Virus record (IMG/VR): IMGVR_UViG_2684623171_000009
Reading direction: 5' to 3' (one strand)
DNA from: a virus
Lineage: Duplodnaviria > Heunggongvirae > Uroviricota > Caudoviricetes
Length of the DNA stretch: 64,000 bases
Positions 9,001 through 15,000 of the stretch are shown in pieces. A program made the position numbers. Each line of letters opens with the position of its first letter. Position 1 is the stretch's first letter.

Positions 9001-12000
9001 ATATCGGTATTGACCCGTCAGGGGTGGGGCAGATTCTGGATTCACTGGCGGAAGCCGGGATCCCCGACGGAATTGTGGTGGGGATAAGCCAGGGCTGGAA
9101 ACTGGGCGGGGCCATTAAAACCACCGAGCGCAAACTGGCTGAAGGGGTGCTGGTGCATGGTGACCAGCCCCTGATGGCCTGGTGTGTCGGCAATGCCCGG
9201 GTGGAGCCTAAAGGTAACGCCATTCTTATCACCAAACAGGCCAGTGGACGGGGAAAAATTGACCCGCTGATGGCGCTGTTCAATGCGGTCTCCCTGATGT
9301 CCCTTAACCCGGAACCGAAAAAGAAAGAATATGCGGTTTTTTTCATATAACCCTGTTCACACTGTAACCATCATGAACCGCTGCGGCGGTTTTTTTATTT
9401 TCAGGAGGCTGATGTGACTCTTAAACGGGCCTGTTCCCTGCTGACGGTGAAATCCTTCAGTGAGGATGAACGGGTGATCACCGGGATTGCGTCAACGCCT
9501 TCTCCGGATCGGGATGGTGACATCCTGGAGCCGGAGGGCGCGGAGTTTGGCAGTGCGATCCCGTTTCTCTGGCAGCATGACCATTCCCGCCCGGTGGGGC
9601 AGTGTACGGTGCGCCGGGTCAGCGAAGGGCTGGAAATCACGGCAACACTGGTGAAGCCCGTACCGGATATGCCGTCGCAACTGGCTGCCCGGCTGGATGA
9701 GGTCTGGGCGGCCATTAAGACCGGGCTGGTCAGGGGGCTGTCCGTGGGCTTCCGTCCCCATGAATACACCTTTCTGGACGGAGGCGGACTGCATTTTCTG
9801 CGCTGGGAACTGATGGAGGTGTCTGCCGTCACCATGCCCGCGAATGCGGAATGCACCATCCGGACCATTAAATCTTACGACCGCCCGTTTTCTGCCGCGT
9901 CCGGCAACCGGAAACCGGTGGTGAAAATCGCATCTTCTGCCGGCGCTGCGGCACAGTCAACAACCGTTTTTCATAAGGAAAAGACCATAATGAATATTGG
10001 CGAACAGATTAAAAGTTTTGAAAACAAGCGTGCAGCGCTGGCAGCCTCCCTTGAGGAGGTCATGACCAAAGCCGCAGAGGAAGGGCGCACGCTGGATGTG
10101 GAGGAGGAAGAGCATTACGACAACACCGCAGCGGAAATCCGTCAGGTGGATGCGCACCTGAAGCGCCTGCGTGAACTGGAAGCCGGTAAGGCCGCCACGG
10201 CGCAGCCGGTGAAACAGGCCGGTAACGGGAATGTGGCCGCGGTGGCTTCTGCGCCGGTGATCCGTGTGGAGCAGAAACTGGATAAGGGGATTGGCTTCGC
10301 CCGCTTTGCCAAATCGCTGGCTGCGGCTAAAGGCGTCCGATCTGAAGCCCTGGAAGTGGCCCGTCGTCAGTATCCGGATGACAGTCGTCTGCATCATGTC
10401 CTGAAATCGGCAGTGGGCGCGGGGACCACCACGGATCCGCAGTGGGCAGGCAGCCTGTCTGAATATCAGGAATACGCACAGGACTTTATTGATTACCTGC
10501 GTCCGCAGACCATTATCGGGCGATTTGGTCAGGGCGGGATCCCTGCACTTCGTCAGGTGCCATTCAATATCCGTGTGCACGCCCAGGTGTCCGGCGGTGC
10601 TGCCGGCTGGGTGGGTGAGGGTAAGGCAAAACCCCTGACGAAGTTTGATTTTGAATCCATCACCTTCAGTCATGCGAAGGTGTCGGCCATTGCGGTACTG
10701 ACGGAAGAATTGATCCGTTTTTCCAGTCCGGCTGCTGATGCACTGGTCCGTAATGCGCTGGCGGAAGCGGTGGTGGCGCGTCTGGATACAGACTTTGTGG
10801 ACCCGAAAAAAGCCGCAGTGGCAGATGTCTCCCCGGCGTCCATCACCCATGATGTGAAGGGCACGGCATCAACCGGTAACCCGGATGCGGATGCCGAGGC
10901 TGCGTTTGGACAGTTTGTGGCAGCAAACCTGCAGCCCACCGGTGCGGTCTGGCTGATGTCCAGCACGAATGCCCTGGCACTGTCCATGCGTAAAAATGCG
11001 CTGGGTCAGAAGGAATACCCGGACATGACCCTGCTGGGTGGCTCCTTCCAGGGGCTGCCGGTGATTGTCTCCCAGTACGTGGGTGACCAGCTGGTGCTGG
11101 TGAATGCCCCGGATATTTATCTGGCGGATGACGGCGGCGTGGCAGTGGATATGTCCCGCGAGGCATCACTGGAAATGCAGTCTGAGCCGGGCGGCGACAG
11201 TACCACGCCGTCCCCGGTGGAGCTGGTTTCCATGTTCCAGACAGGCAGCGTGGCCATCCGTGCGGAGCGCTGGATCAACTGGCGTCGTCGCCGTACTGCG
11301 GCGGTGGCGGTGATCACCGGAGTGAACTACGGCAGTGCGTCCGGCGGCTGAGTCTGATAAGGAGGACGGGAGGCGTGCGCCTCCCGTAACAGGTTATGGC
11401 AAAGATCCGATATCTGCAGGGCACGCATGATGCCCGGGCCGGGGATATCCGTGATGTGGCACAGCCGTGTGCGGAGGTGCTGGTTCGCCTGGGAAAGGCG
11501 GAGTACATCACGGTGCGACGTCCGGCAGGTCAGAAAAAGAAACGTGATGCGGAGCATGGCGAATGTGGAACCTTTTACGGCGAACCCGAAAAAACCAGAA
11601 ATCAGGACGTGACGTAAGAGAGGCGGGCTGGACCAGCCTGTTTCAGGCGGTGGCTGAGCCCTTTTCCGGCGCCTGGCAGCAGGGCGTGAAAGCCGATCCT
11701 GAAGCCGTCCTCTCCTTTCATGCGGTGTTTGCATGTATTTCGCTGATATCCCAGGATATCGCCAAAATGCGGCTGCGTCTTATGCAGACGGATGCGCATG
11801 GGATACGCAGGGAAACGCGCCGGGGGGATATTGCCCGCCTCTGTCGTCGTCCCAACGCCCAGCAGAACCGCATCCAGTTTTTTGAACTGTGGCTGAACGC
11901 CAAACTGCGTCATGGCAATACGGTGGTGCTGAAAATCCGTAATGCCCGGGGGCAGATCAAAGAACTGCGTATTCTGGACTGGAGCCGGGTTGAACCTCTG

Positions 12001-15000
12001 GTGGCGGATGACGGCGAGGTGTTCTACCGCATCACGCCGGACCGGAACTGCGGGATCACGGAGGCGGTGACGGTGCCTGCCCGGGAAGTGATCCACGACC
12101 GGTTTAACTGTTTTTTTCATCCGCTTATAGGATTGCCGCCGGTGTATGCCGCCGGGCTGGCGGCCACGCAGGGGCATCATATTCAGGAAAATTCGACGTC
12201 TTTTTTCAGAAATGGCGGCAGGCCGTCCGGGGTGATTGAGATCCCCGGCAGTATTACGGAAGAAAATGCGAAAAAACTGAAGAGCAACTGGGACAGCGGG
12301 TATACAGGCGAAAATGCGGGGAAAACGGCCATTCTGAGCAACGGGGCAAAATACAACCCCACGACGTTTTCACCGGTGGATGCGCAGACGGTGGAACAAC
12401 TGAAGATGACCGCTGAAATTGTCTGTTCGGTGTTCCGTGTCCCGGCCTACAAGATTGGCGTGGGACAACCGCCTTCCAGTGACAACGTGGAGGCGCTGGA
12501 GCAGCAGTATTATTCCCAGTGCCTGCAGACGCTGATTGAGTCCATTGAACTGTTACTGGATGAGGCGCTGGAAACGGGGGAAAACGAGAGTACAGAATTT
12601 GATGTCACCACGCTGCTGAGAATGGACAGTGAGCGGCGCATGAAAACGCTGGGGGATGCGGTGAAAAATACGCTTCTCACGCCCAATGAGGCCCGTAAAC
12701 GGGAGAACCTGCCGCCCCTGGCCGGCGGTGATGCACTGTATCTTCAGCAGCAGAACTACAGTCTGGAGGCGCTGTCCCGTCGTGATGCCCGTGAGGATCC
12801 GTTCGCGTCTGCCGGGAAAACAGTTTCATCACAGCTGCCTGACGGCGCATCTGACGGTAATAAGGCAATCAGTGAAACAGAGCATGATGCGGTGAAAGCG
12901 ATGTTCAGGGGGGATACTGAGAAAATGACGGAACGGGAACTGTCCATTATTCGTGCACTGGGAGAAGAATTTTCCACAGTGCTGGCGGATTTACAGCGCA
13001 CATTTGAGGAGAAAATAGCCGCGCAGGCACAAACGTTTGAAGAAAAACTGGCTTCTCAGTCTGTGGTATTACAGAAGTGCGTGACGGGTGATGATGTGCG
13101 TCCGATGCTTGAGCAGATGGTGAAAGAGGCAGTGAGCCATATTCCTGTTCCGCGCGACGGTCGTGACTACGATCCGGATGTTCTGCAGAAGGCGGTGAAT
13201 GATGCGGTTGCGAATATTCCGGTACCGGCAGACGGCAAAAGTATCACCCCGGATGATGTGCGTCCGATGCTTGAGCAGATGGTGAAAGAGGCAGTGAGCC
13301 ATATTCCTGTTCCGCGCGACGGTCGTGACTACGATCCGGATGTTCTGCAGAAGGCGGTGAATGATGCGGTCGCGAAAATACCGGTACCGGCAGACGGTAA
13401 AAGTATCACTCCGGATGATGTGCATCCGATGCTTGAACAGATGGTGAAGGAGGCGGTAAGCCATATTCCTGTTCCGCGTGATGGTCGTGACTACGATCCG
13501 GATGTTCTGCAGAAGGCGGTGAATGATGCGGTCGCGAAAATACCGGTACCGGCAGACGGTAAAAGTATCACTCCGGATGATGTGCATCCGATGCTTGAAC
13601 AGATGGTGAAGGAGGCGGTAAGCCATATTCCTGTTCCGCGTGATGGTCGTGACTACGATCCGGATGTTCTGCAGAAGGCGGTTCTGGAGGCGGTGAGTGC
13701 CCTGCCGGCTCCGCAGGACGGGCGTGATGCCACGGCACTGGAAATACTCCCCGCCATTGACGATCAAAAATCCTTTCCCCGGGGCTCGTATGCCACACAC
13801 CAGGGTGGACTCTGGCGGGCGTATGAAAAAACGTACGGGATGCGGGGATGGGAATGCCTGGTTGACGGGGTGGCGGATATTGACGTCAGCATGACGGGTG
13901 AACGGTCGTTCTCTGTGGTGGTCCGGCAGAGCAGTGGCCAGCGTACGGAAAAAACATTTTCCCTGCCGGTGATGCTCTACCGTGGTGTGTTCAGAATCGG
14001 CGAAACTTACCACCCCGGCGATACGGTGACGTGGGGGGCTCGTTGTGGCACTGCAACAGTATGACCGGTGATAAGCCCGGAGAAGCTCATTCATCAGGCT
14101 GGACTCTGGCTGCAAAACGTGGGCGGGATGCAAGAGGTGGAAAGTGACAGCATTACTGACACTGGAAGAAATCAAGGCACATCTGCGTGTTGACCATGAC
14201 GCGGATGATGAGATGCTGATGGACAAGGTTCGTCAGGCTACCGCCGTGCTGCTGGCCTACATCCAGGGCAGCCGGGATAAAGTGATTAGTGAGGACGGTG
14301 AGCTGATCCCTGGTGAGGCATTAACCCGGATGAAGGGGGCTGCCATGCGACTGACCGGGATGCTGTACCGGAATCCGGATCTTGCTGAGCGGGAAGACCT
14401 CGTGCAGGGGGAACTATTTGGTGGGCACCACTTTGTCTAATTCGTCAGATTCTGACCAGACGGTTCAGGCTGTACGCTTACCTGATGTCTCACCGGCGCT
14501 GGTATCGAAGGTCACCGATGCCGTTATGGAGCAGGTAGTCGAATGGCAAAACCGGCCACTGGATGCGGTCTATCCCATTGTTTATCTTGACTGTATTGTC
14601 CTGAAGGTTCGGCAGGACAGTCGCGTAATCAATAAATCCGTATTCCTCGCACTGGGTATCAATATCGAAGGCCAGAAAGAGTTACTGGGTATGTGGCTGG
14701 CCGAAAACGAGGGAGCGAAGTTCTGGCTCAATGTGCTGACTGAACTAAAAAACCGCGGCCTGAACGATATTCTCATAGCCTGTGTCGACGGGCTGAAAGG
14801 CTTCCCGGACGCTATCAACACGGTGTATCCGGAAGCCCGCATCCAGCTGTGCATCGTGCATATGGTGCGCAACAGCCTGCGGTTCGTTTCCTGGAAGGAC
14901 TACAAAGCCGTCACCCGCGACCTGAAAGCCATCTACCAGGCCCCCACAGAAGAAGCAGGCCAGCAGGCGCTGGAAGCGTTCGCCAGCGCCTGGGACAGTC

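Follow-up and report, generated by a model that had tools for sequence, protein, structure and literature searches.

The 833-codon portal reading frame of a degraded O157:H7 lambdoid prophage: a probable frameshift fusion of two adjacent head-module genes

We have analyzed an unusually long portal open reading frame (ORF) in IMG/VR record IMGVR_UViG_2684623171_000009, a tailed virus of the Caudoviricetes, within a stretch of 64,000 nucleotides (nt) that we refer to as the window. The ORF starts with an ATG, extends from 11563 to 14064 on the plus strand and encodes 833 residues, in contrast to a single-domain portal of ~400–450 residues that ends after the crown. Its N-terminal half is a clear HK97-type portal, as had been proposed in the original prediction. 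Pfam Phage_portal (PF04860) matches residues 54–382 (6e-81, 272.5 bits against a cut-off of 39.1), TIGR01537 (portal_HK97) matches residues 45–388 (349.5 bits against a cut-off of 112), and solved HK97-type portals align over residues 45–400 (8cez_A, 4e-20) and 43–420 (9lbn_H, 1e-28). The likeness to HK97 (portal gp3, PDB 8CEZ/8FQL; residues 45–400 match) extends to the module in which the ORF resides, which consists of an HNH endonuclease, TerS, TerL, a protease-capsid fusion, the portal and a gp6-like adaptor.

Downstream of the portal domain, Tandem Repeats Finder identifies an array at 13090..13682 with a period of 162 nt and 3.7 copies (97% matches, no indels, score 1053). The array is in frame, its first residue being residue 510. 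It contains two repeat variants, with DDVRPM in copies 1–2 and DDVHPM in copies 3–4, and copy 3 is identical to the first 107 nt of copy 4 over that stretch. Each 54-residue unit is composed of two 27-residue sub-units, each consisting of a short helix followed by an [ILV]PxPxDG motif (IPVPxDG). Pairwise comparisons of the first three copies give synonymous to nonsynonymous codon differences of 4:1, 10:2 and 6:1; since these differences are mostly synonymous, the repeat frame is the coding frame and is under coding constraint. The array of about 3.7 in-frame 54-codon repeats in two variants, described previously, is thus corroborated. A 385-residue antisense ORF spanning the repeat (13069..14226, minus strand) was rejected as a gene, as it is open only because the repeat has no stops in that frame.

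Comparison with relatives divides this ORF into two genes. We call the second one gene X; its start corresponds to Met455 of the window ORF (nt 12925). The portal (451–464 residues) and X are two genes in BP-4795, PPompW_499, Salmonella FSL SP-016 and Pseudomonas PAJU2, and also in Enterobacter and Pseudomonas prophages and in the Sakai prophage Sp10 (ECs_1974/ECs_1975). X is separate in seven other lineages, with its ATG overlapping the portal stop, usually as ATGA, and residue 1 of the homologue representative P0122 aligns to residue 55 of the extension query, which is Met455 of the ORF. Instead of a separate X between portal and gp6-like adaptor, the window has an in-frame fusion through a run of six G (G6) at 12908–12913. 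The window junction reads GTTCAGGGGGGAT, whereas BP-4795 and Sp10 have the same context with G5; the PPompW tract is also G5, preceded there by GTTGA, and the tract is G6 in phage 2851 and in Sakai prophage Sp6. Removal of one G in a reconstruction yields a 454-residue portal ending in AMFRGILRK, with a stop at 12926–12928, that shares 425 of its 454 residues with ECs_1974 of Sp10. Compared with this native HK97-family portal, the window ORF is longer owing to the one additional G, which carries it 379 codons past the native stop. The last four codons of the portal stretch in the window (DTEK) are read in the wrong frame. The extra G in the G5 tract shifts the portal frame into that of X 12 nt before the X ATG. 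On the plus strand, the portal gene proper (Pfam, TIGRFAM and PDB matches; 454 residues in unfused alleles) occupies 11563..12924, and X as read in the window, C-terminally truncated, occupies 12925..14064 (residues 455–833 of the ORF).

Two successive ATGA overlaps link the portal, X and the connector in intact alleles (12925–12928 and 14144–14147 in window coordinates). Both are also present in BP-4795, PPompW, Sp10 and Enterobacter, and they imply translational coupling of the portal, X and the gp6-like connector.

We conclude, with a probability of roughly 80%, that a frameshift fused two adjacent head-module genes into the 833-codon ORF, which was subsequently truncated, in a degraded O157:H7 lambdoid prophage. 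The ancestral and commonest order is portal (454 residues), X (~300–460 residues) and gp6-like adaptor, with an ATGA overlap at each pair. We also considered whether the split alleles could be the mutants and looked for distant homologues that were mostly fused in frame, which is not the case. The original prediction described a portal with a long appendage; the extension is instead a separate, conserved downstream gene that begins at Met455 and is fused by one added G. It had also been suggested that a missed frameshift might separate the portal from a downstream gene. Two genes are indeed involved, but the frameshift that we found joins them rather than separating them.

A second single-base change affects the end of X. 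The tract at 14033–14038 on the plus strand is G6 in the window and G7 in the intact alleles and related records (BP-4795, PPompW, Sp10, phage 2851 and phi330), as determined from translation, homologue C-termini and tract comparison. Three-frame translation indicates that the missing G exchanges the last 37 residues of X for ARCGTATV, followed by a stop at 14062–14064. The window ORF ends in GDTVTWGARCGTATV, whereas homologues run on as GDTVTWGGSLWHCNSMTGDKPGEAHSSGWTLAAKRGRDAGGGK, a sequence that is found in the window in another frame. The homologues end in TWGGSLWHC...KRGRDAGGGK, which matches the frame predicted for intact X. With the G restored, X has 407 residues and its native stop (14145–14147) overlaps the ATG of the next gene at 14144. 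The complete C-terminal domain of X, with the pattern GD.VTWGGS.W......KPG....W.L..KRGRD, is not present in the window protein. The out-of-frame remainder of X (14039..14147, plus strand), which ends in GSLWHCNSMTGDKPGEAHSSGWTLAAKRGRDARGGK followed by a stop, contains most of a module that resembles carbohydrate-binding module families 5 and 12 (CBM5/12; see below), as judged from translation, the reconstruction and the annotated pseudogene span. Loss of one G from the G7 tract thus ends X 37 residues early, inside this module. The unique tail of ~110 residues noted originally does exist (108 residues), but the frameshift that cuts it short had been overlooked. The defect itself has been recorded before. 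RefSeq (PGAP) annotates the identical locus in FRIK2455 as "phage portal protein, frameshifted", a pseudogene equivalent to 11563..14147, and Asadulghani et al. 2009 (PMC2669165, Table 1) scored the portal of Sp6 as defective ('D') and that of Sp10 as intact ('+'). In these respects the locus is already known, and the window allele is an ordinary decayed copy.

Both tract states are common. In complete E. coli genomes, the fused junction (G6) occurs at 1369 places in 782 genomes and the split junction (G5, with the same flanks) at 913 places in 487 genomes; the truncating G6 of the C-terminal tract occurs at 587 places in 333 genomes, mostly O157:H7. A spread sample of 60 rows, drawn from 92 phage records, comprises 53 split alleles (179 nt, two pieces) and six fused ones (180 nt, one piece), the latter being YYZ-2008, phage 2851 (two records), WGPS6, vB_EcoS-569R3 and phi330. 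Three combinations of the junction and C-terminal tracts are seen directly: G5/G7 in Sp10 (split and intact), G6/G7 in phage 2851, whose 859-residue portal-X fusion has an intact C-terminus, and G6/G6 in Sp6 and the window (fused and truncated). Neither site is conserved in the homologues from Salmonella and Enterobacter (which read CAGAGGATT and TGGGGCGG) or in those from Pseudomonas (neither tract). As the G tracts occur only in E. coli phages, they are local mutational hotspots rather than a conserved recoding signal, and a signal of this kind at the junction was rejected on the same grounds.

The number of repeats varies among relatives, in agreement with the copy-number variability that had been anticipated. 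Half-units number 6, 8 or 10 in E. coli proteins, and the differences between phage records come in steps of 162 nt. Across the X family, the number of 27-residue units ranges from ~2 (PAJU2) to ~25 (P0258). Unequal recombination between the 162-bp copies, each of which encodes two stalk units, alters the length of the stalk. For O157 genomics, the two homopolymer tracts and the 162-bp repeat together make this gene especially prone to allelic variation and to breaks in short-read assemblies; many database proteins of the portal-X gene are partial because short-read assemblies break at this locus.

The phi330 record (PV189401.1, L011 2077–4825) is a Sanger genome assembled by hand, with several small indels in this gene, and we do not rely on it. 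Compared with phage 2851, it has a 2-nt insertion just upstream of the G6 junction and one extra 162-bp repeat, and its X gene contains three single-base indels. If real, these changes leave the portal and X un-fused and the C-terminal domain of X disrupted in a plaque-forming phage; they may also be sequencing errors.

X belongs to a large family, with relatives in 2447 clusters when 1.84 billion representative proteins are searched. Nearly all of the best 150 of these 2447 clusters are stand-alone proteins of 250–860 residues, and portal sequence occurs among them in P0121 and P0258 alone. The family corresponds to PHROGs 8767, 1289 and 16748, which are uncharacterized. Scans of the extension with Pfam, NCBIfam and PHROG returned only chance-level matches or mis-propagated "portal" labels, and PDB sequence searches with X homologues gave nothing significant, so that no homology to a known fibre family appears in Pfam, NCBIfam, PHROG functions or PDB sequences. 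The precomputed Pfam family PF28083 is present on only those homologues with an intact end. The distant P0258 (1237 residues) combines an HK97-type portal with an X homologue of ~25 units of 27 residues, with the linker variant LPEPEPLPDI; it may represent an independent fusion or a gene-calling effect. NCBI records list stand-alone X homologues (P0272–P0390) from Enterobacter, Cronobacter, Citrobacter and Salmonella under the name 'phage gp6-like head-tail connector protein' or 'phage portal protein', apparently taken over from neighbouring or fused genes. In annotation terms, many E. coli prophages have two genes where a long "portal" is listed, and the portal and connector names have spread to X homologues by mistake.

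X consists of a long N-terminal helix, a stalk of 27-residue units and a β domain that ends in the CBM5/12-like module. In the window, all on the plus strand, the N-terminal region (12925..13089) is predicted by AlphaFold2 to be a single long helix of ~50 residues. It is followed by a stalk of eight 27-residue units, each a helix with an [ILV]PxPxDG linker (13090..13737; the first 593 nt are the 162-bp array), identified from Tandem Repeats Finder, copy comparison and AlphaFold2. The conserved C-terminal β domain, defined by alignments, extends up to the truncation (13738..14032). The AlphaFold2 model of an intact 304-residue Enterobacter homologue has a long helix (residues 3–54), four short helices joined by low-confidence PxPxDG linkers, and a β domain at residues 170–300 with a predicted local distance difference test (pLDDT) score of 84–93. 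In the model of the window extension, ~36 disordered residues, which correspond to the C-terminal tail of the portal, precede a long helix at residues 57–106; eight repeat helices separated by low-confidence linkers of 12–13 residues and a β domain with a pLDDT of 75–83 follow. The last ~30 residues are disordered, consistent with loss of the final module. Some X homologues end in collagen GXY repeats, which suggests that these proteins form trimeric fibres.

The last ~45 residues of intact X resemble CBM5/12 chitin-binding modules (PF02839), with the motif Y..GD.V.W.G..W...W. A profile search of the PDB identified the binding domains of chitinases and deacetylases and the injection-system baseplate protein All3316, and Foldseek added the phage 7-7-1 tail fibre and the Milano receptor-binding complex. 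The end of X is thus similar in fold to solved chitin-binding domains, and it has both motif and fold in common with CBM5/12 modules such as those of the 7-7-1 tail fibre (9RKV) and Anabaena All3316 (7B5H). The neighbours of X in BFVD are phage proteins with collagen repeats or CBM5/12 modules. In contrast, most of the module is lost in the window allele, and a PF02839 scan of the window X sequence gave no match.

What X does on the virion can be approached from its distribution and architecture. Burkholderia vB_SBP33 and Moraxella Mcat3 have the same gene order, with the portal directly followed by the connector and no X. Since X is missing from these related head modules, it is an accessory insertion that lies outside the core pathway of assembly. 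The neighbourhood of neck genes, the segmented stalk of variable length, the likely trimeric nature and the carbohydrate-binding-like tip point to an accessory fibre. On this basis, we put at about even odds the proposal that X is a non-essential, carbohydrate-binding fibre or whisker on the exterior of the head or neck. A literature search for a described head or neck fibre of the X family found none.

The wac gene of T4, which encodes fibritin, adjoins the neck genes. Fibritin and the phi29 head fibre gp8.5 (Xiang & Rossmann 2011, as cited in PMC12796354) are the closest systems in design: like X, each has an attachment region at the N-terminus, a stalk in which repeated short helices are interrupted by turns, and a globular C-terminal end, and all three are dispensable accessories. 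The resemblance is confined to design, as X has no sequence or profile similarity to either protein, and its trimeric state and location on the virion are putative. The ends also differ, since fibritin terminates in a foldon and X in the CBM5/12-like module. The C-terminal barrel of the P22 portal is similar to the extension in that it is a long C-terminal addition to a portal that opens with a long helix. However, the barrel is integral to the portal gene, while most relatives encode X as a gene of its own, and X has little helix beyond its first 50 residues and ends in a β domain.

X has most likely lost its function in the window allele. In HK97-type portals, the C-terminus sits in the crown, facing the capsid interior; a fused X would therefore be trapped inside the capsid, and the truncation would in addition remove the putative binding module. 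The portal part of the fusion may or may not still work. A precedent is the side tail fibre gene stf of lambda PaPa, which was inactivated by a single-base frameshift. Like X, stf is a lambdoid accessory fibre gene hit by a one-base indel, the other virion genes can still work, and intact and mutated alleles both circulate. In contrast, the stf frameshift splits one gene into two ORFs, whereas the frameshift in the window joins two genes, the product of which is then cut short by a second slip; X is located in the head/neck module and stf in the tail-fibre module. Either the fusion inactivates a dispensable fibre, as in lambda PaPa stf, or X normally acts at the crown, and the fused but intact alleles such as that of phage 2851 keep the latter reading alive.

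Several observations weigh against a fusion that merely disables an external fibre. X is not marked 'structural' in the PAJU2 record, and every CBM5/12 match falls under the curated threshold (19.4–24.7 bits for intact homologues, compared to the PF02839 gathering value of 26.2). Fused alleles with an intact end are not rare: in addition to phage 2851 (859 residues), YYZ-2008, WGPS6 and vB_EcoS-569R3 are fused, PHROG 2271 models the fused 859-residue form, and at least ~780 fused E. coli copies keep a C-terminal tract other than G6, a count of intact ends that is an indirect bound only, obtained from the G6 places at the junction and at the C-terminal tract (1369 versus 587). Full infectivity of such phages would mean that X is either dispensable or active within the capsid, and would leave the external fibre no more than a proposal. 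Phage 2851 was reportedly isolated as an infectious particle. These alleles favour a genuine long portal, in which the fused portal-X protein is functional with X inside the capsid on the crown, and the window encodes such a portal with a slightly shortened tail; the forms considered were an appendage resembling the P22 barrel or an internal protein, and an X that is released by the prohead protease. The distant 1237-residue fusion of P0258 is in line with this explanation, as is the translational coupling of X to the portal, which suggests matched stoichiometry. We nevertheless regard it as rather unlikely, since there are two genes in most phages and in all distant homologues examined, the fusing G tract is not found outside E. 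coli phages, related head modules lack X, and the carbohydrate-binding and collagen-like ends are typical of external fibres. The window allele, moreover, is without the conserved end of the C-terminal domain, and its tail is modelled as disordered. An internal head protein, whether a scaffold or core component, a determinant of head length for the prolate heads known from this group of phages or an ejected protein, is also an unlikely identity for X, if a little less so. SPP1 gp7 and Mu F are, like X, encoded downstream of the portal and coupled to it. X lies directly downstream of the portal, tolerates fusion to its inward-facing C-terminus and has a stalk of 2 to ~25 units, and prolate heads have been reported for long-tailed lambdoid particles from Sakai (PMC2669165) and for an Stx2c phage. 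Yet modules without X still build heads, profile scans of X detect neither a MuF nor a scaffold domain, and the CBM5/12-like, collagen-like and tail-fibre-like features point outward; moreover, head shape is not known to depend on the number of repeats, and an isometric head was reported for phi330, which has one repeat more than phage 2851.

The abundance of both tract lengths at both sites in E. coli populations (1369 G6 and 913 G5 junctions, 587 truncated ends) and the existence of all three combinations could also reflect slippage in replication, transcription or translation that toggles X between free, portal-tethered and truncated forms, as a contingency locus or by programmed frameshifting. 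The 2-nt insertion upstream of the junction in phi330 would un-fuse a G6 allele, though this Sanger record is possibly in error. We consider such switching very improbable: the slippery tract is not conserved in the Salmonella, Enterobacter and Pseudomonas homologues, runs of G5–G7 offer little length for slippage to be efficient, neither a canonical X XXY YYZ slippery site nor a downstream structure is present, and the 100% identity of the allele in hundreds of O157 genomes speaks for inheritance and against frequent switching. A heritable variant, in which the two mutable G tracts set the position of X on the virion (G5 giving a free fibre, G6 a crown-tethered one, and the second slip a form without the glycan-binding tip) and thereby serve lambdoid phage populations as a switch of what the virion carries on its surface or in its interior, is speculative and in our judgement improbable; in a weaker form of this idea, the portal-tethered X would be a functional internal appendage in phages such as 2851. 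Lastly, homopolymer miscalls or a collapsed or expanded repeat could in principle have created the long ORF, as both indels are located in homopolymers and many database proteins are partial where short-read assemblies break. However, the window sequence recurs with 100% identity in many O157:H7 genomes that were sequenced independently, among them Sakai (prophage Sp6, ECs_1544), EDL933 and Xuzhou21, in both Sanger-era and long-read complete genomes, and RefSeq keeps the frameshift. An assembly artefact, which the original prediction had also raised, is excluded by this identity for all practical purposes. A frameshift fusion of portal and X, followed by truncation, is therefore the explanation that we prefer. 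The remaining interest lies in the X family, whose widespread and uncharacterized members are accessory to HK97-type head modules, vary in length and have a carbohydrate-binding-like tip, and in the status of its fused but intact form; placing X on the virion would be a modest but real addition to phage biology.

The surrounding prophage is itself decayed. Strains such as FRIK2455 and FRIK2533 have a rearranged prophage junction that the window copy matches. The gp6-like head-tail connector gene that follows X (14144..14440, plus strand; Pfam Phage_connect_1 and the Sakai and FRIK2455 annotations) encodes 98 residues, compared to 108 in Sakai. Its 3′ end, cut at 14440, is replaced by a fragment of an IS256-family (Mutator-type) transposase without its N-terminus (14382–15302). 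This fragment joins the head module to the DinI, integrase and RecE fragments of another prophage, with no tail genes after it, and the junction is common to FRIK2455, FRIK2533, FRIK2069 and FRIK944. Upstream of the terminase genes, the HNH endonuclease gene (6475–6839) is frameshifted in the FRIK2455 annotation of the identical sequence. In the lysis region, ISEc8 (IS66 family; tnpA, tnpB and transposase) is located at 1373–3685, flanked by partial YdfR and DUF1327 genes. The frameshifted HNH gene, the ISEc8 insertion, the IS256 truncation and the lack of tail genes behind it thus place the ORF in a decaying element.

Between the HNH gene and the portal, the gene at 9414–11351 encodes a prohead protease (Peptidase_S78, residues 48–152) and an HK97-type major capsid protein (residues 386–635) in one protein of 645 residues; the same protease-capsid fusion is found in PAJU2 and in Enterobacter and Pseudomonas prophages. 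A small conserved ORF of 73 residues (11396..11617, plus strand) lies between this gene and the portal and runs 55 nt past the portal start. Sakai Sp6 and Sp10, BP-4795 and PPompW all have it annotated in the corresponding position, and it is labelled hypothetical in Sakai, BP-4795 and PPompW. Farther away, the window contains two copies of a SASA-family carbohydrate esterase gene (1–344 and 31250–31499), as well as tRNA-Ile and tRNA-Arg genes at 29919–30171; these copies and tRNAs identify the late regions of two distinct lambdoid prophage segments that lie side by side.

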